Program-made: the position numbers and the translations under genes
Part shown: piece by piece, positions 8,025 to 22,956 of the stretch
How the letters are laid out: each line of letters starts with the position of its first letter
Position numbering within the stretch: position 1 is the first letter of the stretch
The notes under the pieces: generated by a model
Told to the model about the DNA's origin: nothing
Databases searched by the model: none
The model's input: only the letters and a program-made list of their open reading frames with translations
Assembly: GCF_032104385.1 (NCBI RefSeq)
Contig: NZ_DAMCHJ010000012.1
Coordinates: forward strand, 37,751 to 61,750
DNA from: Tissierella sp.
Lineage (GTDB): Bacteria > Bacillota > Clostridia > Tissierellales > Tissierellaceae
Direction: 5' to 3'
DNA length: 24,000 bases

Positions 8025-8396
8025 ATGGATAATATTGATTTATTAATTACTTTAACTCAGCATGAAAGAGATTCAAATAATGTTACAATTGCCTTTACTA
8101 TGGGGCTAAAAGCTGCACAAAAGGACCATGATGTAGAGCTAATTCTCTTATCAGATGCAGTTCATTTAGCATCTAAAGGATATGCAAACAAAATAGATAT
8201 AGGTGAACCCTTTGAGCCAATTTCAAAATTATTACCTGCCTTTTTAGAAGCTGGTGGAAGACTAAAGGTATGCTCATCATGCATGATACACAATGGAGTG
8301 GACAAAGACAATTTAGTAGAAGGTGCCGAAATTATTCAAGCAGATTATGTGGTAGATGCTATTATGGCAGCTAAAAAGTCTTTACAATTAAATTAG
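8025..8396 (+). CDS. DsrE/DsrF-like sulfur-relay family protein
   Basis: 123 aa with a GGAGG RBS upstream. The small alpha/beta protein pattern and a conserved Cys region (KVCSSCM) are typical of the DsrE family. Confidence 0.65.
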   Translation: MDNIDLLITLTQHERDSNNVTIAFTMGLKAAQKDHDVELILLSDAVHLASKGYANKIDIGEPFEPISKLLPAFLEAGGRLKVCSSCMIHNGVDKDNLVEGAEIIQADYVVDAIMAAKKSLQLN

Positions 8397-8565
8397 CAGA
8401 TATAAATTACCCTATAGGCTTTATATTAATTAGGCTTATGGGGTTTCTCCTATTTCCACCACAATTCATTTATCCACGAACATTCATTTTCTACAAAATC
8501 TATACTTATTAAGAACTCCTGCCATTTTTTATAATATAGTCTATAATATAGTCAATTTAATTAAT

Positions 8566-8959
8566 ATGTTCTTATTTGCACTATTAATGTTTTCAATAAG
8601 CCGAGGTGAATTTGGGTTTACTAATGAAATTAGAATCTTAAATATAATTTCTGGAATTATGATTATAGGAGTTATTATTTTACTCCCTATTCTATATATA
8701 AATAGGAAGCATTATTTTATTTACTGGAAAAACAGTTATTAAAAGGGAAGGATTTTTCATAAGGGTGTCTTCATATTTTGTACTAGGATTTATTATATTT
8801 TCAACTTCTTCTCTCATATATAATATTTGGTATGAAAAGAGAAATAAAGACTATTTAATAATTTTAGGTGCTGGACTTATGGGTGATAAAGTAACTCCTT
8901 TATTAGCTAGTAGAATTGATAAAGCTATAGAATTTTATAATAGTCAAAAAGAAAAATGA
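8566..8959 (+). pseudogene. DUF218 (YdcF/ElyC/SanA-like) membrane protein gene, frameshifted and 3'-truncated
   Basis: Frame A (8566-8739) encodes TM segments and ends in a stop. An overlapping frame, open from 8702, continues into IILGAGLMGDKVTPLLASRIDKAIEFY, the N-terminal part of a DUF218 fold. That frame stops at 8959, well before the expected domain end. Confidence 0.5.
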
Positions 8960-9115
8960 GTAAAACCTCCTATATACGAGAATATATTGCAATTATATAT
9001 TTAAATCTAAATAAAAATATATTGTTTGCAATTTTTATAGGAATATTTTATTTCTTAAATTTTATAAACTGGAGTTAAATTTTAATATATAAATATAATA
9101 TAATTTAATAGAAAA

Positions 9116-9156
9116 GAGCCAAATAGGAAGATAATAAATATCTTTTTATTTGACTC
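9116..9156. terminator. Stem-loop with flanking T/A runs; probable original bidirectional terminator downstream of guaA, displaced by the island
   Basis: gagccaaata..aagata-ataaa-tatctt..tatttgactc. The minus strand then reads ttttctatt. It lies just outside the left att repeat. Confidence 0.45.
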
Positions 9157-9186
9157 TGTTCTATTTTTCTTATAAATTAAAATACC

Positions 9187-9203
9187 TTTACCTACTCCCA
9201 CTC
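9187..9203. repeat. Island-distal att core (17-bp direct repeat tttacctactcccactc)
   Basis: Perfect 17/17 identity with 22940-22956. The bases flanking each copy differ on both sides. Confidence 0.75.
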
Positions 9204-9337
9204 TTCATTTTATATTATTAGATATATGCTAAAGCTTTTAATTTAGTCATTATTTAACAGTTCGTTCTCGTTCTGTTTGTATAATTTAACTATATTTGAA
9301 ACTTATTTTACCCGTCCCAGTACCAGTTCCGGTTTAA

Positions 9338-10522
9338 TTACCAGGGGAATGTTAGGAAAAATCTTATTATAAGTGCGAACAAAAATATAAAGAATACTAA
9401 CATTTGAGGTTTACCTATTTCTGGTTTCTTTATTATTGCTTCAAATTTGCTACTACCCTCTAAATCTGTTTTAAATAATATTTTATCCTCATATATTTCC
9501 TTAATTACCTTGTATGTTTCTCCTAATGACTTAATTTCTAACCTATAAGCATTAAAAATAAAAATTAAAGCAACAATAAACATTAACAAAACTATGCCTT
9601 TCTTAGCTCCGTCTGAAAATAAAAGATATGGGATTATATCTTCTCCTTTATAGTTAACTATTATATTGAAAAGCTCCAATCCTAAATAACCTAGCCAAGC
9701 AAAAAATGTAAGATTTAGTGTCCTAAGAGAGGTGTTTTCATTCTTTGATAAAATTAGAAAATCATCTTTTAGTTGGTTTAATTGTTCAAAATATTCATTG
9801 GTTTTTTGGGAAACTATTCGTTTGTAAGCTAATTTACTATCCTCAAGCACTCCTTTAACATCTTTAATGTCATTTTTATTAATTATCACTTGCCTGACAA
9901 CTTGAAGTTTTACATTATATGATTCCTCATATTCTTCTTCATTAAATATCCAATCATAAATAGGATACAAATGTAATGGCTTAGAATCAATAATATTTAG
10001 TTTAACCTTGTAATTTTTATCTTCAATTCTAAATTCTGTTTCTACTTCTTCTGCGTTATAATTACTTGCAGTTGCAAGAGCAAAAAGAATCAATATATCT
10101 ATAAATAGAGTGGATTTAAAATTGTTGTTATCGAGAGCCTCATTCAGTACATTTACAGAAATTGGAAAATTTCTAATATCAGCATCTATCTTGTTTTCTT
10201 TTATTATTTTTTCATAAACCTTCTTATCTTTCGCTGTAACTTCAATACCTCGAAAATCTTCAATGTTAGATATGTAAACTTGACTTAATTTATTATAATC
10301 CTTTTGTGAATATTTTGTAATTATCGTGGACAAATTTTTAGACTGATCAATGAATTTATCTTCTAATATATAGTAAGACTCTTGATTTTCTAATGTGTAT
10401 TCTGAACCGTCTTTCCGTAAAGGTATTTCTCTATTTTTTAAAATATGGATTAATGAAGCATTCTCATCAATTTTAGAATCTATTTTTAGCGAAGTATTCT
10501 TCCAGGATAATAAATCATTCAC
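9338..10522 (-). CDS. Hypothetical membrane-anchored protein (soluble N-terminal ~270 aa, about 3 C-terminal TM helices)
   Basis: 394 aa. Hydrophobic stretches: LTFFAWLGYLGLELFNIIV, IVLLMFIVALIFIFNAY and MLVFFIFLFALIIRFFLTF. Its ATG overlaps the stop of the upstream gene (10515-10522). I recognise no family. Confidence 0.6.
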   Translation of the reverse strand: MNDLLSWKNTSLKIDSKIDENASLIHILKNREIPLRKDGSEYTLENQESYYILEDKFIDQSKNLSTIITKYSQKDYNKLSQVYISNIEDFRGIEVTAKDKKVYEKIIKENKIDADIRNFPISVNVLNEALDNNNFKSTLFIDILILFALATASNYNAEEVETEFRIEDKNYKVKLNIIDSKPLHLYPIYDWIFNEEEYEESYNVKLQVVRQVIINKNDIKDVKGVLEDSKLAYKRIVSQKTNEYFEQLNQLKDDFLILSKNENTSLRTLNLTFFAWLGYLGLELFNIIVNYKGEDIIPYLLFSDGAKKGIVLLMFIVALIFIFNAYRLEIKSLGETYKVIKEIYEDKILFKTDLEGSSKFEAIIKKPEIGKPQMLVFFIFLFALIIRFFLTFPW

Positions 10523-11474
10523 CCCCTAGTTCCTCCTTTACTTTAGCTAAATAGTCATCATCTATCATAATCGTAATTTTTTTATTTTTTTCATCAAAAT
10601 TTAATTCATTATCTCTAAGACTCTCCAAGTAGTTTTTAGTTGTAATTGTTATTTCATCGGAAGTTGAGATTATCCTCTTATATTTATTATTTAGTGCTTT
10701 CTCAGAAATATCAAAATCCGCATCTATACCTTCTGATTCAGCTGAGAATAGTTCATCTTCTTTTTGCAATTCAATTAATCCACTGCTATTCAACTCATTG
10801 AATAAATCAGATTTGTCAAATTTTTTATTATCAAACATATAGTATTCTGTAAACCTTTTTATTTCATCGTAATTTTCTTTTTTAATAATTTCTCGTTGAA
10901 AAAATCTATCTTCCGATATAAGATTTACTACCTCTTTTGTACTATCTTCAGATGTTCGTTTTCTTGTAAGTCCTAAAAATTTTTGATACCAATACTTAGC
11001 AGCAGTCCTATTTTTATCAATTATTTTAATATCACTATAATCCCCTTTAAAAGTACAAACTTTAAAATAATCTTTTTCCTTCCCTAATTCGCTCTTAATT
11101 TCATAGGTATCTTTATCAATCACTGTTAATTTTTCTAATTTCATGATAGTAATGAAATTATTATTAACTTTTATAAATAACAACCCTTCTCTTATAGTAC
11201 TATTTCTTGTGTAATCTGCTTTACATTCTGCTTTTAACAAATCTTCTGCTATTCTCTTATAATCAAATTCCACCTTATCTAATGACTCATTAAAATAATG
11301 AATTGGACTATCAAGGTAAGTTTCTGACTCTAAATCTAAAAAACAGTTTGTTATTAAATGGGTTTCTTCGCTTAATTCATCAAATATCTTTAATATATTT
11401 TTTTGCTGGTTACCGTCAATCGAATTTGATTTCACTTCTGTACTAATATCAAATACTTTTACAACCAGTGACAT
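10515..11474 (-). CDS. Hypothetical protein with distant resemblance to NdpA/YejK nucleoid-associated protein family
   Basis: 319 aa with a strong RBS (AGGGAGGAAGGG). The by-eye layout resembles the NA37 family: REGLLFIKV..ITIMKLEKL block, KYWYQKFLGL block, and a C-terminal ITIMIDDDYLAKVKEEL block. The assignment is tentative. Confidence 0.55.
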   Translation of the reverse strand: MSLVVKVFDISTEVKSNSIDGNQQKNILKIFDELSEETHLITNCFLDLESETYLDSPIHYFNESLDKVEFDYKRIAEDLLKAECKADYTRNSTIREGLLFIKVNNNFITIMKLEKLTVIDKDTYEIKSELGKEKDYFKVCTFKGDYSDIKIIDKNRTAAKYWYQKFLGLTRKRTSEDSTKEVVNLISEDRFFQREIIKKENYDEIKRFTEYYMFDNKKFDKSDLFNELNSSGLIELQKEDELFSAESEGIDADFDISEKALNNKYKRIISTSDEITITTKNYLESLRDNELNFDEKNKKITIMIDDDYLAKVKEELGGE

Positions 11475-11528
11475 AAATCCCTTCCTCCCTTAATTAGATT
11501 TTTATAGCCACTCACATCTTGATTCCAG

Positions 11529-12137
11529 TTATCGTACTAAAATCAAATCTTGACTTTCAATAAACTCACTATAATAATCTATTATTTGGTACATTGATTT
11601 TATCTTCTCAATTGCAATATATTTATTCATAAAATCATAATCAGGTTTACCATCTTTAGCTGGTAACATAATTTTTTCTCTTTTTATTCTTCTATCGTTA
11701 ATTTCTCTATTAAAAGAATATTTAGTTTCTAAGTTTCTAAGTTTCGTAGCTAAAAATAGATATATGTTTTCTGTAGCTTTATCTATCTTTAAAGCAGTTA
11801 TATGGTCACTTCCTATAAATTCATACTTATGGTAAAAAGTAGAACCTACGGAACCACTATTAGCTATAGTTAAACAATCGTTAAAAACTCTAACTTTATC
11901 AGTATTGCCTATAAAATTATCTAGTCCATTATTAAGTCCTGTTGAAGAAATATATGGAATATCCCCTTCAAACTGTTCTCTTTTTGTAAGTCGTCTTCCT
12001 CTCTGTATTAGATTAAATACATCATCAAGATAAAATTCTTTCCAATCTATACTTTCTAAATTAAATTCTAATCCCTTACAAATGGCTAACTTATATATAT
12101 ATATATATATAGTCAAGCACTTTAGAGGCTGTTTCAT
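11529..12137 (-). CDS. Single-TRD HsdS-like specificity cassette (half S subunit), lacking a convincing independent start
   Basis: Contains the third copy of the TRD signature (DIPYISSTGLNNGLDNF, NSGSVGSTFYHKYEF) and a C-terminal conserved helix (IIDYYSEFIE). Its only ATG lies 47 nt inside the upstream S gene, without a good RBS. The frame is +1 relative to the upstream S gene across a (TA)10 tract. Confidence 0.55.
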   Translation of the reverse strand: MKQPLKCLTIYIYIYKLAICKGLEFNLESIDWKEFYLDDVFNLIQRGRRLTKREQFEGDIPYISSTGLNNGLDNFIGNTDKVRVFNDCLTIANSGSVGSTFYHKYEFIGSDHITALKIDKATENIYLFLATKLRNLETKYSFNREINDRRIKREKIMLPAKDGKPDYDFMNKYIAIEKIKSMYQIIDYYSEFIESQDLILVR

Positions 12138-13203
12138 GCTCTAAATTTTTAATAAAATCTGTCATGTATTTCCAGTTCGGATTACCATTTTCTTCTGATG
12201 GAAGAAGAATCTTTGCATTTTTTAGTCTATTTCCATTAAAATGTATTCCATAAGAGGCTTTTACTTTTGACACCTTTTCTATAGCACTACATAAAAATTT
12301 ACTATTATGATTATTTAAGTTATCATTATAAAGCAAATTTATTGAAGAGCCACTAAATCCTCTACCTACAAAGTCATAATCATGATAGAAAGTTGTCCCG
12401 CCTACAGGATCAACTGATATGGCACTTCTTTTACTTATATCTGATTCTATAGCATTTACAAAGTTGGTAATTCCATTATTTTCTGAAGATGTAGTTACAT
12501 AGGGAATATTGCCATTCTCATAATTATTGATTGGTTTGCCCTCTACTCTTTTTACATCAAAAATCTCATCAATTTGAAACAGATTCCATTCTACTTCTTT
12601 TAAATCTAATAATATACTAGCTTCATCAATAAGTTTTTGTTCATAATAATCTATAACTTTTTCAGCTTGAGATTTTAATTCTTGCTTGGCATAATCCTCC
12701 ATGAATCTCCAATTAGGCTCATTATTATCATTAATAGGGAGTAGGATTTTTGACCTTCTCATTCTTTTAGGACGCCATTTTTTACCATATTCATAAGATT
12801 TACCTGTTTTCTCTAGCATTACAATTAGAAAAAAGGCTATATACTTATTAAGTTCATAGTTTTTAAGATATACAGGAGTGATATCATGACTGCAAGTAAA
12901 TAAATCCTCTTGATAAAATGCATGACCCACCGACCCGTTGTTTGTTATTGCTATACAATTTCCAGAAAACAATCTTTCATCAATATTGTTATTTGTTTTA
13001 TTTCCAACCTTATCCCATGTTAGTATTGTATCTTTGGAATAAAATTCTGATACACCGTTGTTATAAGCAGTGGCACTAAGGAATGGGATCTTGCCATTCT
13101 TTTCTGCGGGAGGCTTTTTATTATAATATCCATCTACTATTTCAAAAATATCAATCATATTAAATTCTTTCCACCCAACGCTATTTAACTTTAACCTATT
13201 CAT
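12091..13203 (-). CDS. HsdS-like specificity subunit with two target-recognition domains (BcgI-B-like)
   Basis: Two paralogous TRDs (KIPFLSATAYNNGVSEF / NIPYVTTSSENNGITNF; NNGSVGHAFYQ / VGGTTFYHDYDF) are separated by a helical spacer. Start at MNRLKL (ATG 13203) overlaps the stop of the upstream gene (ATGAATAG). Confidence 0.8.
   Translation of the reverse strand: MNRLKLNSVGWKEFNMIDIFEIVDGYYNKKPPAEKNGKIPFLSATAYNNGVSEFYSKDTILTWDKVGNKTNNNIDERLFSGNCIAITNNGSVGHAFYQEDLFTCSHDITPVYLKNYELNKYIAFFLIVMLEKTGKSYEYGKKWRPKRMRRSKILLPINDNNEPNWRFMEDYAKQELKSQAEKVIDYYEQKLIDEASILLDLKEVEWNLFQIDEIFDVKRVEGKPINNYENGNIPYVTTSSENNGITNFVNAIESDISKRSAISVDPVGGTTFYHDYDFVGRGFSGSSINLLYNDNLNNHNSKFLCSAIEKVSKVKASYGIHFNGNRLKNAKILLPSEENGNPNWKYMTDFIKNLEHETASKVLDYIYIYI
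12092..12111. repeat. (TA)10 dinucleotide simple-sequence repeat at the junction of two S-subunit reading frames
   Basis: tatatatatatatatatata. It encodes YIYIYI-stop in the upstream S frame and IYIYIY in the downstream frame. Confidence 0.95.
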
Positions 13204-15172
13204 AACCTTCACCATCTTCAGCAGCATAAGGTTGATTAATATCTTGAATTATATCTTTCTCAATTTGGTCCTCCAGTCCAAATAAATATCCTCTACCATG
13301 AGTAATCATATTTACTTCAAAGGTTAGATAATCAGCTATAGTATTTTTAAAATCTTCTTCTGATGGTATCTCATCATTAAAATAATAGAATGAGTGTAGC
13401 CATTCATCGTCTGCTTCTATAGTAGTCTCTACACAAAATTTAGTTTGAGACTCTATTCTATTAAACCATACATCTAGTAGATGTTGCTTTTTATCCTTTG
13501 CTGAAGTAGTTTCTATTAGTCCAATATGCTTTGAAACTTTATAACCATCCTCTTCAAAGTTTATAAACTTACACAGTTTATCTTCTCTATGAGGTACTCC
13601 GGATGTAAAAATTGCTATACAGGGATTGACACCAACCCCATAAAAAGTATCTTTGTTTAAGGTTATAACTCCTTCCAAAGTATGTTTTTTTAATATATTT
13701 TCTTTTATTTCTTTTTCCACTTTTGTTTTGCCTGTTACAGAAGATTGAGGGATAATTACTGCAGCTCTTCCTCCTTCTACAAGTGAGTCTAAAAGATGTT
13801 CAGTAAAAGCTATCTCATATAAATCTTTATTCCTGGAAGATCCCTGAGAATATGGAGGGTTCATCATACCAACTGTACATTGTTTTAATTGAAGTTTATT
13901 AGGATTTTCTTTTAGAAAATCATGATTCTCTAGATTGCTTTTGCCGTCTCCACGGATAATCATATTAGTCGTCGCTATGGTGAACATGTATGATTGAATT
14001 TCATTTCCAAATAATCTATTCTTTCTGATATCTTCAATTTTTCTTTCATCATCTGTCTGCTTTATCATATGATGCATGGCAGAAATCAAAAATCCTGCCG
14101 TACCACAACACGGGTCTAGTACACGGTCATTTGGCTTAATGTCTACCAATTCACAAAATAAATCTGTGATGTGTCTTGGTGTTAAAACTATCCCCAATGT
14201 CTGTCCATCCCCGCCAGAATAGCTCATAAATTCCCCATAAAATCTGCCTAAATAATCTTCTGAACTTGATATTCTATTTATTGTTTTAAATATATTATTA
14301 TTTATAAATTCTGTATAATGTTTTATTGGAGTTTTTCCAAGTGTTGAATCAATTTCATTTATTTTTGTTGTATCCTTTATTACTAAAAACTGACTCAAAA
14401 GTTTGTCCCTCTTAACTTCAGGTGATACATTTACCCTTTTTAAATGATCATCTATAGCTTTATATATCTTATTACCATCTGTATTTATTTGATCTCCATT
14501 TAAAGTCTTTTCTACTGATATATTATTACGTTCGAATTCTCTTAGTGCTAAAAGTATTCCTGATACTATTAAAGGCTTATCTTTATCTTGTATTGACCCA
14601 TAGTTTCTTAAATCTTCATGAAGTTCTGCAGCATCTTTAAGTATTTCTTTAGTTTCTTTTTCTTCACTAGTTGGCTCTTTTAAGACCTCTCTTAGATAAT
14701 ATTCTTCTATATTTTCTTCATTAAATAAAATGAAACTTTCTATCTCATCTAGTTCAGTATAATTTTCTCTTTCATCTATAAATAAAGGAGTTATCCTATG
14801 TCTTTTTTCATTTCCTGATACCCCAATCGCTATTATTTTTTTATAAGAAGTATTTTTTGCAAGATGTTTTCCATAAAATAATGCTCCATTAACTGCATAG
14901 TTAATGTTTGAATCTACTGTTTCACATATTAGATTTTTATCATTTCTTTTCTCGTGAAAATATGTAGTAGCCTTATTTTCTATTACGATTAAAAAGTCTT
15001 TTACTACTCCTACATATTCAGGAAATCCAACTTTCCCAGTACCTCTTTTAGATGATGTTTGTAATGCTTTATGTACTTCTTTTATATTAGAACCTTGGGC
15101 TGAAAGTTTTATATCTGCTTCCTTTAACAAATCATAAACCCAAAGATCTGTATTTGCTTCTAACTTTGCCAT
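13196..15172 (-). CDS. Fused PD-(D/E)xK endonuclease / gamma-class N6-adenine DNA methyltransferase (BcgI-A-like type IIB R-M catalytic subunit)
   Basis: 658 aa. N-terminus has P51-E52-X12-E65-N-K67 (GFPEYVGVVKDFLIVIENK). SAM motif I VLDPCCGTAGFL lies at about residue 350, roughly 150 aa later than in a plain HsdM. Motif IV is MNPPYS. No hsdR gene lies within the island. Confidence 0.7.
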   Translation of the reverse strand: MAKLEANTDLWVYDLLKEADIKLSAQGSNIKEVHKALQTSSKRGTGKVGFPEYVGVVKDFLIVIENKATTYFHEKRNDKNLICETVDSNINYAVNGALFYGKHLAKNTSYKKIIAIGVSGNEKRHRITPLFIDERENYTELDEIESFILFNEENIEEYYLREVLKEPTSEEKETKEILKDAAELHEDLRNYGSIQDKDKPLIVSGILLALREFERNNISVEKTLNGDQINTDGNKIYKAIDDHLKRVNVSPEVKRDKLLSQFLVIKDTTKINEIDSTLGKTPIKHYTEFINNNIFKTINRISSSEDYLGRFYGEFMSYSGGDGQTLGIVLTPRHITDLFCELVDIKPNDRVLDPCCGTAGFLISAMHHMIKQTDDERKIEDIRKNRLFGNEIQSYMFTIATTNMIIRGDGKSNLENHDFLKENPNKLQLKQCTVGMMNPPYSQGSSRNKDLYEIAFTEHLLDSLVEGGRAAVIIPQSSVTGKTKVEKEIKENILKKHTLEGVITLNKDTFYGVGVNPCIAIFTSGVPHREDKLCKFINFEEDGYKVSKHIGLIETTSAKDKKQHLLDVWFNRIESQTKFCVETTIEADDEWLHSFYYFNDEIPSEEDFKNTIADYLTFEVNMITHGRGYLFGLEDQIEKDIIQDINQPYAAEDGEGYE

Positions 15173-15269
15173 TGCTTATACCTCTCTTTTTTTATTCTAT
15201 ACTTTAATTGAATTTCTGTCTTCTCTTCATTATTTCTTTAATATTACATCTTAAATATATTTAATTTAT

Positions 15270-15485
15270 CTATTTTACATATTCCATAATATCTTCTATA
15301 TCACAGCCTAAAACATAGCAAATTTTTGCTATGGTAGCTAAATCTAATCTCTTAACTTTATTGTTGCAATATGAATTGAGCTGAGTTCTCTGTAAATTGG
15401 CTTCCTTTTCTAATTTGTTTTTACTTATGTTTTTCTCTTCTAAAACCTGATCAATTTTAAAAATCACTCTTCCAAAATCTTGCAT
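15270..15485 (-). CDS. Small XRE/Cro-type HTH regulator, candidate R-M controller (C) protein
   Basis: 71 aa. HTH region ISKNKLEKEANLQRTQLNSYCNNK. RBS AAAGGAGA. It lies immediately upstream of the R-M catalytic gene, in the same orientation. Confidence 0.65.
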   Translation of the reverse strand: MQDFGRVIFKIDQVLEEKNISKNKLEKEANLQRTQLNSYCNNKVKRLDLATIAKICYVLGCDIEDIMEYVK

Positions 15486-15592
15486 CTTTTTATCTCCTTT
15501 TGATATTTAAAGATAAGTTTATTTCTCCCTATTTCAAAATCATTATTAAGACAATTATATCAGACTTGGTTTCTTTTTACACCTGTAAGAAG

Positions 15593-15937
15593 TTATTTTA
15601 TATATTTTCTTACCAAGATATTTTGTATATTCATTATCTCTTTCGATATATTATCATTCTCTTTTTTTAAATCCTCAATATCTTCTCTGTAAATTATTCC
15701 TGTAGTATTTACTCTTTTCGCAATCTGATTAATGTTGCCAGAGTTCTTCCCTATAAGAGTTTGTAGTCTTCTAAAAACATTCATATCTATTACAAATATA
15801 GGCGCCTCCATAACGCATTTCCTTATAAAGTGTCCCATGGATTTTGACTTGCTAAGTTCAAGTTTTTTCTTGAAAATTTCTTTTTCTTCTTTAGTCAACT
15901 TGATTTCAATTCTTTCATTCCTATATCTATTAGTCAT
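15593..15937 (-). CDS. MobC-family mobilisation (relaxosome accessory) protein, RHH-type
   Basis: 114 aa. N-terminal RIEIKLTKEEKEIFKKK RHH-like strand-helix, and a GNINQIAKRVN motif characteristic of the MobC family (NxNQIAr). RBS AAAGGAGAAG. Confidence 0.65.
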   Translation of the reverse strand: MTNRYRNERIEIKLTKEEKEIFKKKLELSKSKSMGHFIRKCVMEAPIFVIDMNVFRRLQTLIGKNSGNINQIAKRVNTTGIIYREDIEDLKKENDNISKEIMNIQNILVRKYIK

Positions 15938-15974
15938 ATTCTTCTCCTTTACTTTTATATTTTTAACTAGGGTC

Positions 15975-16086
15975 TTAGGGGTTTCCCCTAAATCTTTCTG
16001 ATAAGAACAAGTAGAAAATTGAGTAGAATAAAGCGAACCTTGAGGTCAGCTTTATTCTATTTTCTCGTAAGTGTCCGTACACTTAC
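15975..16086. promoter_or_regulatory. Cluster of three inverted repeats; candidate oriT/ori structural elements or terminator
   Basis: IR1 is ttagggg-ttt-cccctaa (15975-15991). IR2 is tagaataaagc-N14-gctttattcta (16024-16059). IR3 is gtaagtgt-ccgt-acacttac (16067-16086). All lie in the 375-bp noncoding gap between the helicase and MobC-like genes. Confidence 0.4.
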
Positions 16087-16295
16087 TGTGCTTGCTACTA
16101 AGGTTTTTAAATTTAAGCTAGAAATTCCCATTACTATACTTTTTTATGAAATATGCACAGAAAGAAAGTGTAACTGTAACCTACTATTTCAAAAGTCCTC
16201 AAATAAGGCATTGATTCTTATCTTGATTCCTACAAGCCTTGATATTACTAGACTTCCATTTCTACCAGCCTGATTCTAAAGGTTTTGAAAACTTG

Positions 16296-16325
16296 GTTAC
16301 AAGTTACAAGGTTACAAAATTACAA
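16296..16325. repeat. Four tandem (G/A)TTACAA heptamers (iteron-like) spanning the helicase stop codon
   Basis: gttacaa at 16296, 16303 and 16311, and attacaa at 16319 (spacing 7, 8, 8). Nearby, three TTGAT(T/A) repeats occur at 16211, 16223 and 16239. Confidence 0.6.
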
Positions 16326-17775
16326 TTTTATTATCTTTTGCATTCTCTCCTGTGTCCATTTCTATTTGCTCTGGTTCTTGCCATTCTTTTGGTAAATCAT
16401 TATTATTAACTTCCATAAAGTCATTTTCTTTCTTTTCTCCTCTTTCATAATAAAGTTTTACTGGTATAGATATTCCACTAGGAGCAATACGTTTAGTTTT
16501 TGATGAACGAACTGCCTTCCACTCCGGAAAATAATTATCCATGATTTCAGAAAAAGATTTTGATTTAATCCCATAGCCTTGCATAGATAATTCCTTAAAG
16601 CAAGTTATATTTGGTTCTTGTGTTTTTGCTTTATACTCTTCTAAAAAATACCTAATATCTTCAACATCTGGATTTAGATACTTAAACTTTTCTTGTTCTT
16701 GGTAGAGATCCTCAAGGAGGTTTTTTGGTATGGTCCAGGAATGTTTCTTCTCTTTATAAAGTTTATATCCATAGGCAAGGGCCTGGTTAAAATCTTCTCG
16801 AATAGAATCTAAATATTCTTTTTCTGATTCTTTACCTTGAAAATCCTTGTCGAGATAAATGGCCTTCTTCCTGTTTTCCTTGTGACATTCTATAGGTAAA
16901 TACCTTCTCTCTCCTGTGTGGTCATTTAAAAAAGTTCTTTCATTTAATGTTCCAATTAAAATACAAGTCCTAGGAACATCGGTTGAAAATTTCTCATAAG
17001 GGATTCTTATCCTATCGCTTAATTTAGATAAAAATGATTTTGCTTCATTGGCAGACTTTGCATTTCTTAAGGCTACAAATTCTTCAATTTCTACTACTGT
17101 CTTGCCCATTAGGTTCATTACTGCATCTTTACCTTGAATATTTTCTATAGTGCAAAACCAATCATCTTTTATGGCCAAGTATCTAGCAAAGGTAGATTTT
17201 CCTATTCCCTGACCACCTACTAAAACCATCATTTCATCAAACTTAGATCCTGGTTCAAAGACTCTTTTAACTAAACCTAAAATCATATGCTCCATAATCC
17301 AGGCATTTAATTCTGTATCATCAGCTCCTAGATAAATTGGTAGGAGTTTAGCTATTGCATTTGTGCCTCCCTTCCAAGTTAAGCTTTTTAGATATTGTTT
17401 TGGTGGACTTATTTCATACTGATGGGCAACAAAGCGAACTGCATCCCACATTTTATTGGCATTATAATTAAGTCCAAAATGCTTTTCTATTTCAAGTCCT
17501 AACCTGTTATTTAATGAATCATCCCATAGTCTTATTTGATTTGGCTTTATGCCTTTTTCCCCTATAATCTTACCTTGAAATTTAATCTCATTGGTAAATT
17601 TATCATAGAAGATTTGTCCTTCATATATTTTCTTAGCCTTACAATATTTTTGGTTAAGGAGTACTGTGACAATATTTCCTGTAATTTGCTTTACATTACC
17701 TTTTACTGTCTTCTGTAAATCGATTAAAGAATAGGACTGGTCTATTTCAGAAAAAGCTAGTTTAAACTCTTTCAT
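16312..17775 (-). CDS. VirE / D5-like P-loop replicative helicase family protein
   Basis: Walker A GGQGIGKST in the middle of a ~490-aa protein, immediately downstream of and overlapping a Prim-Pol gene. The preferred start is MKEFKL (ATG 17775); the ORF-track start at 17838 lies deep inside the upstream gene. Confidence 0.75.
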   Translation of the reverse strand: MKEFKLAFSEIDQSYSLIDLQKTVKGNVKQITGNIVTVLLNQKYCKAKKIYEGQIFYDKFTNEIKFQGKIIGEKGIKPNQIRLWDDSLNNRLGLEIEKHFGLNYNANKMWDAVRFVAHQYEISPPKQYLKSLTWKGGTNAIAKLLPIYLGADDTELNAWIMEHMILGLVKRVFEPGSKFDEMMVLVGGQGIGKSTFARYLAIKDDWFCTIENIQGKDAVMNLMGKTVVEIEEFVALRNAKSANEAKSFLSKLSDRIRIPYEKFSTDVPRTCILIGTLNERTFLNDHTGERRYLPIECHKENRKKAIYLDKDFQGKESEKEYLDSIREDFNQALAYGYKLYKEKKHSWTIPKNLLEDLYQEQEKFKYLNPDVEDIRYFLEEYKAKTQEPNITCFKELSMQGYGIKSKSFSEIMDNYFPEWKAVRSSKTKRIAPSGISIPVKLYYERGEKKENDFMEVNNNDLPKEWQEPEQIEMDTGENAKDNKIVIL

Positions 17776-18703
17776 AGGCCCTGGTCCTTTTCTTGTATTG
17801 AAAATGTCTACTCCAGTCAAAGGCCACAAATTTTCCAAGGCCCAAGACTTTTTCTATGGTCTTTTCTACATAGTCAAGATACTTTCTATCATCCCTTCTT
17901 TTCTTATTGCTGCCTAGGCGATTTAAAGGAGTCATTAAAAAGAGTTCTTTCATTAAGTTAGGATTTCCATCTGTATAGTTTCTAGCAAGTACTAGAAAAG
18001 TAAAGTCATCCCTGCTATGGTCACCTGTTAGACTAGCTCCTGATATAAGCATATTTGCCTTTCTATTAGTTCTTTCCAGGGTGGTTAGTATTTCCTCTAG
18101 GGTTAAGTCATCAAGTCTAGAAAACTTGTTTAAAGGCTCATACTTGTATTCTCTAATTTGTTTTAGGGTAGATGCTTTCTCCTGTGTCCATTTCTTATAA
18201 AGTATTTTTAATTCTCCTTCTTTTTCTAAAAGCTTATTATTTCTGGGGAAGAAGGATCCATCTCCTATATTTCCTGTAAGAGCTATATATCTATTTTTCT
18301 TGTATATCTCAATTCCTCTACTTGATAAATTAATATTATCTGGAATAGTCCCTTGGACAAAAATATGGATTCCCTTGCCTGATTGGGATAACTCCATATA
18401 TGTCCCTGTAAAACTCTCTATAATTTCTTTTGCCATAGGAGTTAGCTTACCACCTTGAATTGCATGGTCTAGGTCTATACAGATAACACTATCTTCCTCA
18501 ACTAAAACAAAGCCTAGAAGTTTATTCTTAGTCTTAGCTTCATTGAAATCTATACATCGTTCTGGATGATTCCAATCATTAGCTTTTCCATCAATTAGAG
18601 AAAAGGGGAGCTTGGCTACTTTGCCATTTAACTCTTCCTTTCTCCAACCTACAAATCTTTTCAAATTTTTCATTTCTTCTGGTAGATATTTATATTTTTC
18701 CAT
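17762..18703 (-). CDS. Bifunctional DNA primase/polymerase (Prim-Pol, AEP superfamily) N-terminal domain protein
   Basis: FVGWR..KLPF.., catalytic ICIDLDH (DxD) and SGKGIHIF motifs. RBS AAGGAGGT. Confidence 0.75.
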   Translation of the reverse strand: MEKYKYLPEEMKNLKRFVGWRKEELNGKVAKLPFSLIDGKANDWNHPERCIDFNEAKTKNKLLGFVLVEEDSVICIDLDHAIQGGKLTPMAKEIIESFTGTYMELSQSGKGIHIFVQGTIPDNINLSSRGIEIYKKNRYIALTGNIGDGSFFPRNNKLLEKEGELKILYKKWTQEKASTLKQIREYKYEPLNKFSRLDDLTLEEILTTLERTNRKANMLISGASLTGDHSRDDFTFLVLARNYTDGNPNLMKELFLMTPLNRLGSNKKRRDDRKYLDYVEKTIEKVLGLGKFVAFDWSRHFQYKKRTRAYERV

Positions 18704-18798
18704 TCTTTTTACCTCCTTATGCTGGTCAGAATAGAACCCATATGGTAAAATGAATTTGGTAGAAACATTCCATACGGGGTGTGCCTTTGGCCTTTGTG

Positions 18799-19119
18799 CT
18801 AAAGGCTTTTTTCTTTTTTGATTTCATAGTAAATTTCTATTAAGAATCTTAAAATCTCCTGGTCTTCCTCTTCTAATCTTCCATATTTCTTTATAACTTT
18901 TGCCAATCTAAATATTTCTAGAGCAAATTTATCTTCAAGTCTATAATCTGCTTTAATGGACACAGGAGGAGATGTTAATGACCTTATAATATAATCTTGC
19001 TTAGTAAGACCACTTATTTCTACCTTCCTATCTAATAACTCAGCTTCTTCCTCTGTTGCCCTAAAAGAAATTATCTTATTTCTCTTTCTTTTAACTTGTT
19101 TTTTTATTTCCCTACTCAT
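18799..19119 (-). CDS. Ribbon-helix-helix (MobC N-terminal-like) DNA-binding protein
   Basis: IISFRATEEEAELLDRKVEISGLTKQDYIIRSL is an RHH pattern. The MSREIKK start (ATG 19119) overlaps the integrase stop (ATGAGTAG). Confidence 0.5.
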   Translation of the reverse strand: MSREIKKQVKRKRNKIISFRATEEEAELLDRKVEISGLTKQDYIIRSLTSPPVSIKADYRLEDKFALEIFRLAKVIKKYGRLEEEDQEILRFLIEIYYEIKKEKSL

Positions 19120-20218
19120 ATTCATCCTCCAATAATTTTTTCCATTCATCTTCTAAGCTTTCTTTTCTTAAATTAGATAAGGAAATGGCCATATCATTTT
19201 GCTTGCTTGGGAATAAGTGAGCATACCTATAGGTTATATCTATAGATTCATGGCCTAGTCTATCTGCTATGGCTATTGCTGAATAACCTAATTCAATTAA
19301 CAAAGATACATGGGAATGTCTTAGATCATGTACTCTAATTCTCTTAACTCCAGCTTTTGTACTTCCCCTAGTCATTTCATGATGTAGATAGGACTTGGTA
19401 ATTGGAAATAATAATTGATCCCTCTTTAGCTTGTATATTCCAGCCATATATTTATCCATTTCTTCTGCCAAAAAGTCTGGCATAACAACTGTCCTGATAC
19501 TTTTCTTAGTCTTAGGTTCAGTTATAATATTTTCTCCACCTATTCTTTGTAGAGATTGATTTACTCTAATAGTATTGTTAGTAAAATCAAATTTCTCCTT
19601 TGTTAAAGCTAGTAATTCCCCTGTTCTTAATCCACACCAATATAAAATTTGAAAAGAATGGAAGGATAAGGGTTTATCCTTAACTTCTTCTATAAATTTG
19701 TCATACTCTTTTTTAGTCCAAAACTTCATTTCAGAAGCTTCCTTTTCTCCAATAGATCCAACATCCCTCGCTACATTGGATTTTAGATTATAATATTTAC
19801 AAGCATGATTTAGGATACTACTTAATTGTGCATGTATTGTTCTTAGATAGGTTTGAGAATATTTTTGGCCCTTACTATTCTCTTCTTTCATTAATTCATT
19901 CTGCCATTTTACTATTGCTGTTTTAGATATTTCATTAACTTTAAGACCTCCTATATAGGGAATAACCTTTGTGATTATTATTTGCTCTTTGGTATTCCAA
20001 GTGTTTTCCCTTAATCTAGGCCTCATATCTTTTTCGTATACTTGAAAAAAATCCTTAAATGTCATATCAAGATTTCCAGATTGTTCTCTTAAGAAATCTT
20101 CCTCCCATTTTAAAGCTTCTTTTTTTTGTTTTGAATCCTCTCTTCTTTTTGTTAATTTTCTCACCACGCCAATTGCTATAGGTAAATTTGGCAAACCATG
20201 TGCCATTTCCACTTTCAT
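19112..20218 (-). CDS. int: Tyrosine-type site-specific integrase
   Basis: C-terminal catalytic signature: GLRTGELLAL (Arg), HDLRHSHVSLL (His-x-x-Arg) and GHESIDITYRYAHL (His and the Tyr nucleophile). N-terminal SAM-like core-binding domain. Confidence 0.9.
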   Translation of the reverse strand: MKVEMAHGLPNLPIAIGVVRKLTKRREDSKQKKEALKWEEDFLREQSGNLDMTFKDFFQVYEKDMRPRLRENTWNTKEQIIITKVIPYIGGLKVNEISKTAIVKWQNELMKEENSKGQKYSQTYLRTIHAQLSSILNHACKYYNLKSNVARDVGSIGEKEASEMKFWTKKEYDKFIEEVKDKPLSFHSFQILYWCGLRTGELLALTKEKFDFTNNTIRVNQSLQRIGGENIITEPKTKKSIRTVVMPDFLAEEMDKYMAGIYKLKRDQLLFPITKSYLHHEMTRGSTKAGVKRIRVHDLRHSHVSLLIELGYSAIAIADRLGHESIDITYRYAHLFPSKQNDMAISLSNLRKESLEDEWKKLLEDEYE

Positions 20219-20236
20219 CTCTATAGGCTCCCACTC

Positions 20237-20425
20237 CTAGGCCTCCTTTCTTACTTGATAACAGTACTTGTCCAAGAAATATTGTCTATTGATTTTTCCC
20301 CTTTGAACCCTGTAGCCTAGTTCAACTAGTTCTTGATTCATTTCATTAATTACTTGATAGGCTGTAGTTCTACTAACTTCTAAAAAATCCTGTACTTCCT
20401 TTGCATTCATAAAAATCTTTTCCAT
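20237..20425 (-). CDS. Excisionase-like / MerR-type small HTH DNA-binding protein
   Basis: MNAKEVQDFLEVSRTTAYQVINEM is an HTH_17-type motif. The gene lies directly upstream of int. Start at MEKIF is preceded by AAGGGGGAG. Confidence 0.6.
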   Translation of the reverse strand: MEKIFMNAKEVQDFLEVSRTTAYQVINEMNQELVELGYRVQRGKINRQYFLDKYCYQVRKEA

Positions 20426-20476
20426 ACTTATCTCCCCCTTGGAATTCAACAACACACTTTCGTGCTATTAGGTTAT

Positions 20477-20505
20477 ATAATATCAGCACATTTCCGTGTT
20501 GTCAA
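20477..20505 (-). promoter_or_regulatory. Sigma-A-type promoter for the xis-int-replication operon
   Basis: On the minus strand, TTGACA (20505-20500), a 17-nt spacer, then TATTAT (20482-20477), about 50 nt upstream of the excisionase-like start. It is flanked and overlapped by two CAC-N6-GTG 12-mers (20453-20464 and 20487-20498, 10/12 identical). Confidence 0.5.
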
Positions 20506-20580
20506 GATTGATTTTAAATTATTTTTATTTATCTTTCCTATTACAAGGGATTTCATTGAATTTATAATCGTTCACTTCTG

Positions 20581-20609
20581 TTGCTATTAATGATATCTTG
20601 TGATAAAAT
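20581..20609 (+). promoter_or_regulatory. Sigma-A-type promoter for the XRE repressor gene
   Basis: TTGCTA, a 17-nt spacer ending in TGa (extended -10), then TAAAAT. It lies 30 nt upstream of the ATG at 20640. Confidence 0.4.
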
Positions 20610-20639
20610 AAATTATAATACTAGCGAAAGGGGTTTCCA

Positions 20640-21068
20640 ATGATTTCAGGTGAAAAGCTAAAAAAGTTAAGATTACTTAGAGAATTGACACAGAAAGAAT
20701 TAGCAATAAAATCAGGGCTTACAGATTCTGCTATAAGAAATTATGAATTAGGTTATAGATCTCCCAATAAAGAGCAATTAATAAAGATAGCAGAGGCTTT
20801 AGCTTGTGATGTTTCTTCCTTAATTGACCATACTCCCATTTCTAATTTTGAATTTATGCAAATTCTATTTGATTATGAAGAAGATTTAAAAATAAGACCA
20901 CTAGTAGAAGGTTCTACAATAGGGCTGCTTTCACACGATATGAATTTAAATGATTTTCTAGTAGAATGGGATGAAATGAGAAAAAAACACTATAACGGTG
21001 AAATTACAGATGAAGAGTTTGAGGATTGGAAGTTGTCATATCCTAAGAAGTCTAGATTTAACAAATAA
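20640..21068 (+). CDS. XRE/cI-type HTH repressor (island master-repressor candidate)
   Basis: N-terminal LKKLRLLRELTQKELAIKSGLTDSAIRNYELG HTH_3 motif plus a C-terminal extension. Divergent from the xis-int operon. RBS GAAAGGGG. Confidence 0.8.
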   Translation: MISGEKLKKLRLLRELTQKELAIKSGLTDSAIRNYELGYRSPNKEQLIKIAEALACDVSSLIDHTPISNFEFMQILFDYEEDLKIRPLVEGSTIGLLSHDMNLNDFLVEWDEMRKKHYNGEITDEEFEDWKLSYPKKSRFNK

Positions 21069-21100
21069 TTCTTATATTATAAATCTATAGCTTGATTTTT

Positions 21101-21123
21101 AACCTATCGATTTCGATAGGGTT
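21101..21123. repeat. Near-perfect palindrome with TCGATTTCGA core (copy 1)
   Basis: aacctatcga-tt-tcgatagggtt. Confidence 0.7.
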
Positions 21124-21180
21124 AATATATATATAATAAACCGTGTTGGATTGGACACGGTTAAATATGATTTAATTCTA

Positions 21181-21202
21181 AACTGGTCGATTTCGAACAG
21201 TT
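21181..21202. repeat. 22-bp palindrome with TCGATTTCGA core (copy 2)
   Basis: aactggtcgatttcgaacagtt, with 10 of 11 arm positions paired. The core lies exactly 80 bp from the copy-1 core. Confidence 0.7.
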
Positions 21203-21260
21203 ATAATACAAATCATTTAACAATTACCTGCTATTAAGTAGAGAATTTAATATTAGCTGT

Positions 21261-21305
21261 ATCAAAAAAGCCACCATAGAATCTTCTTCAGATCTTTATG
21301 GTGGC
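21261..21305 (-). terminator. Rho-independent terminator (paralogue of the one at 22775-22814)
   Basis: Stem gccaccata/tatggtggc, followed on the minus strand by TTTTTTGAT. It lies downstream of the 21406-21693 gene. Confidence 0.6.
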
Positions 21306-21405
21306 TCTATTTGCAGTTCCCTAGAATTGAGCCTATCCATATTATTAAAGTCTTCTAAGGAAATATCCATAATGTTTCAATTATTATAAATTCCTCCCTA
21401 TTGAC

Positions 21406-21693
21406 TCAAATAGAGCGTATCCACTCATCGTTAAAAATATCTCGGAATTCTTCCATTACATCTTCAAATCGTGTTAACCCTTCCACTTTCAATTTTTTTG
21501 AGAAAGCTATTGAGTTGTCTTGTGCCAGTGCAGACCAAAAATACTGTACCATTTTCTCTGCAGTAAGACGACTCATTCTCCCAATAGTTAAATTTACTCC
21601 ACTCTTAACATTAGCTGGTACCGTTTCTGATGATAAAATAGGATCAAATATCCTCTCATGTAAAAATCTCATTAATTCCTCTTCTTTAGTCAT
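21406..21693 (-). CDS. Hypothetical protein (95 aa)
   Basis: Strong RBS AGGAGGTGA. Tightly packed behind the upstream gene. The overlapping + strand ORF 21401-21721 has no RBS. Confidence 0.6.
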   Translation of the reverse strand: MTKEEELMRFLHERIFDPILSSETVPANVKSGVNLTIGRMSRLTAEKMVQYFWSALAQDNSIAFSKKLKVEGLTRFEDVMEEFRDIFNDEWIRSI

Positions 21694-21706
21694 AATATTT
21701 CACCTC

Positions 21707-22006
21707 CTATACCCAACTTAAAGATTTTGGCGTTATTGGTGAAATGCCTTTTGCAATTCTTAAATGCTCAATCCATGTTTTACAGCCTACCATATCTGCC
21801 CTGTCCAAATAGTAACCAACATTTGGCCTTGAGCTAATTGATTTCCTATGACTTCTTAAAACACGAATAGCCTCTCTTATTTGATTTTTTGTAGCTCCCA
21901 TTGGTACTATAATTTCTACAATATCATGAAACTTGATTGCATTGACTCTTCCTAAATGATTATTCATCACTTCAGCAACATATAAGTTTACATCTCTTTG
22001 TTTCAT
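21707..22006 (-). CDS. Hypothetical protein (99 aa), possible winged-helix DNA-binding
   Basis: RBS GAGGAGG. NQIREAIRVLRSHRKSISSRPNVGYYL resembles HTH_11/wHTH recognition helix-wing patterns. Confidence 0.5.
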   Translation of the reverse strand: MKQRDVNLYVAEVMNNHLGRVNAIKFHDIVEIIVPMGATKNQIREAIRVLRSHRKSISSRPNVGYYLDRADMVGCKTWIEHLRIAKGISPITPKSLSWV

Positions 22007-22077
22007 CTTCTAAACCTCCTCAATTTTTTATTTTAATCTTCCATATATTCTAATCAATCACAGTTAATGATTATACT

Positions 22078-22479
22078 TTAAAAAGATAATTTTGCTTCGG
22101 GAGTATATTCATTTCCTACAATATCAAGAGGAATACGATCAAGCCAATCTGCTCCCCATTTATCTCGTGTTTCCTCAACAACAAGTTTTCCTGTCTCCGT
22201 TAATACTCTTGCTTGTCGATCTGACGAGGCTGCCAATGATGGCTTATTTCCCGAATAATAACCTGCTGTTGAACTAGGACTTTTCCCGTATTTTCTTGCA
22301 AATTTAGATATTTCCTCTGGTGTAACAGTCCCTCCTTGTCTATAAATCTCTTCAAGTATGGCGATTTTTCTTACCTCACCAATAGTTGTGGTAATACTTG
22401 CATTTTTAGATTCTAGTCGATTAATAAGTGCTGATACCTTTGCCTCAATCTCTTTTAATTCACTTAAAATTGTTTTCAT
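22078..22479 (-). CDS. Hypothetical protein (133 aa), N-terminal coiled coil plus possible wHTH
   Basis: Start at MKTILSEL (ATG 22479) is preceded by AAAGGAG. The ORF-track extension to 22521 lacks an RBS. Confidence 0.55.
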   Translation of the reverse strand: MKTILSELKEIEAKVSALINRLESKNASITTTIGEVRKIAILEEIYRQGGTVTPEEISKFARKYGKSPSSTAGYYSGNKPSLAASSDRQARVLTETGKLVVEETRDKWGADWLDRIPLDIVGNEYTPEAKLSF

Positions 22480-22774
22480 ATTTCTATCTCCTTTCAAATC
22501 AAAGTCCATTACATAATTCATTCCTTGATATTGTTCATGATATCAAAAATATAAGTTTCTGTCAATCATTATATTTTTCATTGAATGATTCTTTTAATGG
22601 TTCTGTTCTATATTTCAATAATACTTAATGACCTATAACTCAATTCATCTTGTATTTTATTCCTTGGCTTTTTATTTTTCTTATACTACATTTCCTAATT
22701 TTACAATCTTCTTGGATTTCATAAATTATCTAATAATTGCTTGCTGTTAAACAGAAAACAATAAACACACACAC

Positions 22775-22814
22775 CAAAAAACACCATAGATTCTTATTCA
22801 GATCTCTATGGTGT
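22775..22814 (-). terminator. Rho-independent terminator downstream of guaA (island-borne)
   Basis: 10-bp stem acaccataga/tctatggtgt, followed on the minus strand by TTTTTG. It lies 130 nt after the guaA stop. Confidence 0.6.
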
Positions 22815-22939
22815 TTCTATTTGTAAGCCAGTCGGCATTATTTATTAAGTTATTCTAAAAAACTTTTTTACCCAATTTCGTTCCAGTCAAGGATTTTTAA
22901 CCTCTACAAGTATTGGTTTTATCAGTTTTTCTTTTTATT

Positions 22940-22956
22940 TTTACCTACTCCCACTC
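22940..22956. repeat. guaA-proximal att core (17-bp direct repeat)
   Basis: tttacctactcccactc, identical to 9187-9203. It covers guaA codons E-W-E plus the TAG stop and 5 nt beyond. Confidence 0.75.

Follow-up and report, generated by a model that had tools for sequence, protein, structure and literature searches.

In the PANGU systems described in an April 2026 preprint, a YejK-like nucleoid protein is combined with an effector (bioRxiv 10.64898/2026.04.06.716658). PANGU type II consists of Pag2A and Pag2B, the latter with an acidic domain mimicking DNA at its N-terminus and a transmembrane (TM) domain at its C-terminus; both genes are needed, and Escherichia coli is protected against T4 by abortive infection. 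Pag2A leaves the nucleoid upon infection, and acidic DNA-mimic domains are bound by Pag1A as well as by Pag2A. The systems were collected with a hidden Markov model (HMM) based on NdpA at E < 1e-10, requiring at least 300 amino acids (aa) and a gap to the partner gene of less than 40 bp (bioRxiv 10.64898/2026.04.06.716658). A further two-gene operon validated in E. coli in the DefensePredictor study, D390, encodes a 391-aa NA37 protein (WP_000355468.1) and a 404-aa protein with C-terminal hydrophobic helices (WP_000150292.1; PMC13092281). In the Kiwa system, KwaB binds DNA non-specifically, is held at the membrane by KwaA and also binds Gam. Here, we analyse a gene pair encoded in a 24,000-nucleotide (nt) stretch of DNA from Tissierella sp. 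(NCBI RefSeq assembly GCF_032104385.1, 324-kb metagenome contig NZ_DAMCHJ010000012.1, positions 37,751 to 61,750; hereafter the window), for which an earlier note, made from the sequence alone, had proposed a candidate new defence module. The first gene of the pair is designated A and the second B; coordinates are those of the window and refer to the minus strand unless given otherwise.

A and B form a conserved, mobile two-gene module, which by analogy with the systems above is probably an anti-phage defence module. As best explanation, we favor abortive infection by a two-gene module of PANGU type II character, which we consider slightly better than an even bet. Of the earlier proposal, the coupled pair and the defence-type context have held up, while the novelty of kind has not, given the PANGU type II precedent of 2026. 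Because operons combining a YejK-like protein with a membrane protein have been described (PANGU type II, DefensePredictor), the pairing is not categorically new; the A/B family is an unannotated, sequence-invisible branch of an already described idea. Likewise, the statement that no named defence system shows this pairing has to be withdrawn, as PANGU type II (bioRxiv 10.64898/2026.04.06.716658) and the DefensePredictor operon (PMC13092281) have the same architecture and Kiwa pairs a membrane protein with KwaB.

Conservation and Spread of the Gene Pair

Homologue searches returned 101 proteins for A and 182 for B, with identities between 52 and 100% and nearly all of them full-length. Named sources are Amedibacillus, Xylanivirga, Dolosigranulum, Anaerococcus, Enterococcus faecalis, Alkalibaculum, Fusobacterium nucleatum and Dialister invisus, and the loci bearing the pair belong to Bacillota, Fusobacteriota and others. 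Wherever recognizable copies of both genes are found (41 of 41 loci), B directly follows A, usually with the same 8-nt overlap. Over 26 loci, the pairwise identities of A and B are strongly correlated (r = 0.92), with means of 67% for A and 54% for B, the latter diverging faster.

In the window, the end of A and the start of B have 8 nt in common within GTGAATGA, and the Shine-Dalgarno-like string AAAGGAGGAA is located at 10539-10530, 9 nt 5' of the GTG start of B (Table 1). The overlap at 10515-10522 had been correctly placed before, whereas the start codon assumed there, ATG, has to be replaced by the GTG at 10522. The reported distance of 54 nt from the last specificity (S) cassette is exact, with the half-S gene spanning 11529..12137 and A beginning at 11474. 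No convincing separate promoter for A was found in this 54-nt spacer, the number of candidate sites not exceeding that in shuffled controls, although scans for promoters and terminators are uninformative in such AT-rich DNA. The G+C content of the A-B region is the minimum of the window, with 25-27% compared to 31-35% in the flanks. Taken together, A and B are a translationally coupled unit which is co-inherited and moves between phyla as island cargo, usually near restriction systems.

A scan of genome contigs gave only six loci. On one plasmid, from Staphylococcus epidermidis, a distant pair adjoins a type III-like restriction-modification (R-M) system; the A profile recognizes the A-like protein of this pair with an E value of 3e-40, and the 404-aa partner shows the same layout as B without an HMM match to it. 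When a DNA pattern derived from the conserved motif of A was run on metagenomes, 120 stretches were retrieved, 98 of which hold a superfamily member. These fall into three groups: the A family itself, whose members always have a B partner some 390 aa long; A-like proteins of 340-355 aa with partners of 415-525 aa also ending in three hydrophobic helices; and stand-alone canonical NA37 genes encoding 352 aa. In the second group, a canonical NA37 gene is often found 3' of the partner gene (E 8e-32). Alignment of B with the partners of this second group (the 'g3' set) by hhalign resulted in a probability of 85.5% and an E value of 5.7e-6 over 290 columns, which places B in a larger, rapidly evolving family of membrane partners. 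Five of the loci (L050, L068, L111, L113 and L116) show a three-gene order with a divergent A-like gene lacking a Pfam match, a gene for a 510-525-aa partner with three C-terminal TM helices and a canonical NA37 gene (E 8e-32), an arrangement that may correspond to 'Cluster4' of the PANGU preprint. In L068, the flanking genes are a type I S gene and one of the Schlafen type with AlbA_2 and HATPase_c_4 domains.

Copies of the pair were found neither in 50,697 phage records searched by tblastn nor in the viral contigs of IMG/VR, and a blastn search of E. coli genomes did not return any relatives. With no phage homologues at hand, a role of A and B as structural cargo of a phage or satellite was dismissed. 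In Sutterella-type loci (L017 at 10088-11977, L106 and L143), A and B are each broken into several open reading frames (ORFs), and these copies look like decaying ones.

Protein A Is a Remote Relative of YejK

Protein A, identical to a hypothetical protein of Tissierella sp., is not directly matched by any model in Pfam (even at E ≤ 1), PADLOC 2.0, NCBIfam or PHROGs. However remote in sequence, the fold can be assigned by structure prediction. The AlphaFold2 monomer model, based on a 38-sequence alignment, reached a predicted local distance difference test (pLDDT) score of 88, and a Foldseek search of the Protein Data Bank (PDB) with this model gave E. coli YejK (NdpA, NA37; 9be2) as top match (E 1.5e-6, probability 1.0). 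The second-best match is Kiwa KwaB, with crystal and cryo-EM structures (among them 9mtn) at E values of about 1e-2 and probabilities of 0.5-0.77, and nothing significant was found in the PDB beyond these two proteins. The model thus shows the two-domain fold of YejK; the low template modelling scores (TM-scores) between A and YejK (0.38) are expected if the two domains are differently placed.

A further connection is provided by chained profile searches. The profile of the A family (A1), searched against 1.84 billion proteins, found 208 cluster representatives, and among 60 distant full-length hits 7 are matched by Pfam NA37, the gathering cut-off being passed by the distant relatives P0296 and the protein of locus L046. 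In hhalign comparisons, A1 aligns with the set of distant relatives at a probability of 100%, while A together with its nearer relatives aligns with a canonical NA37 alignment including YejK (using a sequence identical to chain 9be2_A) at a probability of 96.5% (E 9e-10, 212 columns). The relationship becomes significant only when broader profiles are used on both sides: aligning the A1 or A3 profile with the single YejK sequence did not give a significant result. PDB sequence-profile searches with the A-based profiles A1, A2 and A3 found no match, and a third homologue search starting from the distant alignment returned only eight proteins. Accordingly, A is linked to the NA37 superfamily through intermediate sequences and does not itself attain the Pfam NA37 gathering score. 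Judged from these profiles and the predicted fold, A is a member of the YejK/NA37 superfamily, representing a remote branch missed by the family HMM. The structural match and the profile chain therefore show that the distant NdpA/YejK resemblance, previously recognized by eye, was correct.

The most conserved stretch of A (Table 1) bears the invariant residues I152, D153, K154, N155, A159, Y161 and W162. Its motif, IIDKN[KR]TAAKYW..FLGL, is aligned by hhalign to residues 169-187 of YejK, a segment holding R173, R176 and K177, mutation of which abolishes DNA binding (PMC11229321). In this alignment, K154 and R156 of A are paired with K171 and R173 of YejK. Given that the alignment is a remote one, the conserved residues K154, K/R156 and K160 would fall on the R173/R176/K177 segment and a second basic cluster, K264/K266, on R276-K284 of YejK (R276, R280 and K284). 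Like YejK, for which a pI of 4.9 was computed, A is acidic overall (pI 4.8) and carries a basic patch, its central third being basic. From homology and from these conserved basic residues, A is expected to bind DNA. The two proteins differ in their genetic setting: Gram-negative bacteria have YejK as an abundant chromosomal protein that stands alone, whereas A is island-borne, always accompanied by B and below the HMM threshold.

Protein B Combines a Soluble Domain With Three Hydrophobic Helices

For B, models from Pfam, PADLOC 2.0, NCBIfam and PHROGs did not give any match. Its AlphaFold2 monomer model has a pLDDT of 75, with residues 1-240 well and the helical C-terminus poorly predicted. 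The layout consists of a soluble alpha/beta N-terminal domain (about residues 1-220), a long helix (residues 222-289) and three hydrophobic helices. Foldseek searches against PDB and BFVD found no match for B, the best E value being about 1, and in this sense the soluble domain is novel, as the earlier note had it. The about three C-terminal TM helices claimed there likewise correspond to three hydrophobic segments in the hydropathy scan, hydrophobic 19-aa windows covering residues 271-289, 300-331 and 368-394. Between the second and the third helix, residues 328-372 form a conserved, lysine-rich amphipathic segment that would be cytoplasmic by predicted topology; the positive charge of this loop fits an orientation of B with the N-terminus inside. 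Invariant residues are clustered in the TM region (F273, F274, W276, G278, K307, K308, E329, S332, L333, Y337, Y344, K347 and R387). Their position in and between the membrane helices indicates that the membrane part is more than an anchor. Residues 1-220 have a net charge of -8, a pI of 5.0 and 17% aspartate plus glutamate, and the family median is the same (-8, pI about 5).

Genomic Context of the Pair in Other Genomes

Known defence genes are found within 10 kb of the pair. In 16 of the 26 loci, type I-like R-M genes adjoin it, and in 10 of these A directly follows an S gene. Of the Pfam families assigned to 63 ORFs that neighbour the pair in 14 further loci, Methylase_S (8), N6_Mtase (6), ResIII (4) and the HsdR domains were the most frequent. 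HsdM-like methyltransferases of 624-658 aa together with S subunits are encoded near the pair in the window, in Xylanivirga, in Dialister and in gut metagenome contigs, while the pair of Dolosigranulum pigrum is accompanied by a complete hsdMSR system. Other combinations are GmrSD in F. nucleatum, SMEK, Hachiman and Dcm/McrB-like genes in locus L027, and, in Amedibacillus-type contigs, Dcm/MutH/Vsr, a PLD-SNF2 helicase, MazG, a Schlafen-type helicase and a SIR2 protein. Hence, R-M, GmrSD, Hachiman, SIR2 or Schlafen-type genes adjoin the pair in unrelated genomes, a context strongly of the defence type. At least 9 of the 26 loci, including the island of the window, have the pair adjacent to guaA. 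Besides the window, at least eight further distinct loci, belonging to several phyla, hold the pair at this guaA-adjacent position, where an integrase may be present or lacking.

A particularly close arrangement is present in loci L018-L021, where the stop of a half-S gene overlaps the start of A by 8 nt, no integrase is left and the pair lies between R-M genes and mreB. In these near-identical gut metagenome loci (8393-10008), the S genes are either split (362 and 175 aa) or fused (537 aa), and this difference suggests that the specificity subunit just 5' of A is rearranged or phase-variable. In Amedibacillus-type contigs (L005-L007, 3090-9624), a three-gene block precedes the pair which could not be matched to any named defence system; it encodes a 918-aa protein with an RNA polymerase alpha C-terminal domain and sigma-70 region 4, a 403-aa protein without a recognizable domain and an 853-aa PLD-SNF2 helicase. 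A and B as the missing restriction subunit of the adjoining R-M systems was also considered and rejected, as the pair is likewise found next to complete hsdMSR systems, next to GmrSD and without any R-M genes.

Comparison With Described Systems and Proposed Mechanism

In architecture, the A/B pair resembles Pag2A/Pag2B as described. Both are two-gene operons with the gene for the nucleoid-associated protein (NAP) in first position, a YejK-fold protein being combined with a partner that is soluble in its N-terminal and membrane-embedded in its C-terminal part; R-M, Hachiman and other defence genes are found nearby, and both are spread between phyla. The 8-nt overlap is well within the adjacency used for PANGU, and B has the kind of partner architecture described, with its soluble residues 1-220 and three C-terminal hydrophobic helices. 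D390 shows the same gene order, near-abutting genes and comparable sizes (391 and 404 aa versus 319 and 394 aa), and its partner protein resembles B in being soluble in the N-terminal part, which is followed by a TM hairpin, about 55 aa of cytoplasmic helix and one last TM helix. In contrast to A, however, the NAP of D390 clearly belongs to NA37 and carries an additional zinc ribbon at its N-terminus, and the operon is located in a lambdoid prophage between lysis genes and Q, not near R-M genes or guaA. In the available part of the DefensePredictor supplement, accessions of the A/B family are not among the entries. In the lambdoid prophage-like plasmids of E. coli and Klebsiella in which it was located (L152, 5823-8208; L155, 1823-4224), the D390 operon is a moron with the lysis cassette on one side and the Q antiterminator gene on the other; the annotation of strain MS 69-1 splits the partner gene into two pieces.

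By analogy with Pag2A/Pag2B, an abortive-infection mechanism can be proposed for A and B. A, with its YejK fold, would probably dimerize into a ring around double-stranded DNA and sit on the host nucleoid. Degradation or displacement of host DNA by an infecting phage would then set A free for binding to the mildly acidic cytoplasmic N-terminal domain of B. In response, the three-helix membrane part of B might change its state or oligomerize and damage the membrane, and the infected cell would die or stop growing before phage release. The trigger, the binding of A to B, the damage to the membrane and an abortive course of infection are all transferred here from the described systems.

Several observations weigh against an assignment to the PANGU type II kind. 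At 319 aa, A would be long enough, but it is not matched by the NA37 HMM even at E ≤ 1 and thus falls outside the operational definition of PANGU (E < 1e-10). The N-terminal domain of B is only mildly acidic, less than expected of a DNA mimic with its 17% aspartate plus glutamate. In hhalign comparisons with the D390 pair and three plasmid relatives, probabilities of only 0.2% for B and 1.5% for A were obtained, albeit in a test of low power, as canonical NA37 itself reached only 7% against the D390 NAP. Moreover, how Pag2A activates Pag2B is unexplained (bioRxiv 10.64898/2026.04.06.716658). Finally, a free-standing sensor of genome damage does not account for the very frequent and sometimes translationally coupled adjacency to type I-like R-M genes.

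The latter adjacency would be accounted for if the pair acted as a second line behind the type I-like R-M system instead of as a free-standing sensor, comparable to the coupling of PrrC with EcoprrI. The clamp formed by A might then be a decoy for phage DNA-mimic anti-restriction proteins of the Ocr/ArdA type, or it might sense restriction activity or its loss, in either case switching on B. Such a guard function would explain why the pair follows S genes, follows hsdR or precedes hsdM in most loci, sometimes coupled to S as in L018-L021. The R-M genes beside the distant relatives on the S. epidermidis plasmid and in L068 fit as well, as does the binding of DNA mimics by YejK-fold relatives (KwaB with Gam, Pag1A and Pag2A with acidic domains). 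Nevertheless, the pair is also encountered without a type I-like enzyme, namely in F. nucleatum with GmrSD, in Amedibacillus and in L027 with Hachiman, the operon validated in E. coli, which shares this architecture, resides in a lambdoid prophage far from R-M genes, and clustering in defence islands alone could bring about the adjacency, so that we regard a restriction-linked guard as quite improbable. A somewhat better, though still low, probability is assigned to a mechanism similar to Kiwa, in which B would be a membrane sensor of phage attachment or injection stress that releases or activates A, and A would clamp incoming phage DNA and block its replication, resulting in direct immunity and not in cell suicide. 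Kiwa likewise combines a membrane protein with a non-specific DNA binder held at the membrane, KwaB is the runner-up among the fold matches of A, and conservation within B is highest in and around the membrane helices, as would be the case for a sensor or scaffold. Against this, KwaA, KwaB and DUF4868 models (Pfam, PADLOC) do not match A or B, and the gene order is reversed, with KwaA being encoded upstream and B downstream. In addition, KwaA is small, has four helices and lacks a large cytoplasmic domain, whereas B has 394 aa with a 220-aa soluble domain and three TM helices, and the fold match of A to KwaB is much weaker than that to YejK. Kiwa also differs from the abortive-infection module proposed above in blocking phage replication rather than killing the cell.

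A function outside of defence appears about as improbable as the guard function. A might be a nucleoid-associated protein of mobile elements, organizing or silencing their own or host DNA like NdpA-type proteins on plasmids and integrative and conjugative elements, and B an unrelated membrane or exclusion protein that is merely co-transcribed. Indeed, distant NA37 members occur singly on conjugative elements (beside TrwC/TraG in L030 and on Pseudomonas megaplasmids), and the copy in the window belongs to an integrative island that encodes an integrase and a primase. Such a role is difficult to reconcile with the strict, translationally coupled pairing and co-divergence of A and B, with pairs that persist without an integrase or mobility gene (L018-L021, from R-M genes to mreB), with the consistent occurrence of defence genes as neighbours and with the absence of copies from the phage collections searched.

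If the A/B pair does protect against phages, nucleoid-protein-based immunity as known from PANGU would extend to a family that is invisible to HMM-based catalogues, with no matching model in Pfam, PADLOC 2.0, NCBIfam or PHROGs. The NdpA-based HMM used for PANGU at E < 1e-10 would miss A. This family is present in human-associated Bacillota, Fusobacterium, Dialister and Dolosigranulum. The combination of a YejK fold with a membrane effector would then be older and more widespread than sequence searches suggest, and YejK, KwaB of Kiwa and the PANGU sensors would be joined in one structural theme. The link to type I-like R-M systems and the integration hotspot at guaA pose the question of whether loss of host DNA or restriction-enzyme events serve as the trigger.

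The Integrative Island and Its Restriction-Modification Genes

In the window, A and B are the terminal genes of an island. The perfect 17-nt direct repeats at 9187-9203 and 22940-22956, the latter copy supplying the stop and the four codons before it in guaA, delimit an integrative island spanning 9187-22956, which has a size of 13.8 kb and is inserted at the 3' end of guaA. With this repeat pair, the earlier placement of A and B as the last genes before the attachment (att) site is corroborated, the stop codon of B being separated from the inner copy (9187-9203) by 135 nt. Features of the pair and its surroundings are compiled in Table 1.

Table 1. Features of the A/B gene pair, the island end and the adjacent restriction-modification genes (window coordinates).
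Feature	Position	Strand	Description
Gene A	10515..11474	-	ATG start; 319 aa, cytoplasmic; remote member of the YejK/NA37 DNA-clamp superfamily by profiles and predicted fold; proposed sensor
Gene B	9338..10522	-	GTG start at 10522; 394 aa, membrane protein; proposed effector
A/B coupling site	10515..10539	-	GTGAATGA; holds the A stop TGA (10517-10515) and the B GTG
Most conserved stretch of A	10993..11032	-	Residues 148-160 of the 148-173 motif DIKIIDKNRTAAKYWYQKFLGLTRKR; aligns with the YejK DNA-binding segment
B transmembrane region	9347..9721	-	aa 268-392; TM1 ~268-289, TM2 ~306-327, TM3 ~373-392 (Kyte-Doolittle)
Spacer from half-S gene to A	11475..11528	-	54 nt; ribosome-binding string GGGAGGAAGGG
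att repeat, island end	9187..9203	.	17 nt, TTTACCTACTCCCACTC; perfect direct repeat of 22940-22956
Adjacent R-M genes	11529..15172	-	658-aa HsdM-like methyltransferase, 378-aa S and 202-aa half-S
HsdM-like methyltransferase	13196-15172	-	658 aa; methylase part at aa ~300-550
Full S gene	12091-13227	-	378 aa; overlaps the half-S gene by 47 nt
Half-S gene	11529-12137	-	202 aa

To the R-M genes adjoining A on the contig of the window, Pfam N6_Mtase and Methylase_S were assigned, and their sequence matches in the PDB are type I M subunits. The full S and half-S genes overlap by 47 nt. HsdR is lacking in this R-M system. By eye, a PD-(D/E)xK-like string (KDFLIVIENK) can be recognized in the otherwise unassigned 300-aa N-terminus of the methyltransferase, and this suggests that the 658-aa protein is a fused nuclease-methylase in the style of BcgI and other type IIB enzymes.

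The island also carries integrase and primase genes. Further products encoded on its minus strand are two small NikA/MobC-like proteins, a primase-polymerase-like protein and a VapE-like helicase (15593-15937, 18799-19149 and 16312-18703). Since capsid and packaging genes are not present on the island, it may be a mobilizable integrative element and not a classical phage-inducible chromosomal island. Just beyond the island, a 64-aa ORF on the plus strand (8765-8959) may be a truncated gene, its product resembling by eye the N-terminal part of a DUF218/YdcF-type protein.

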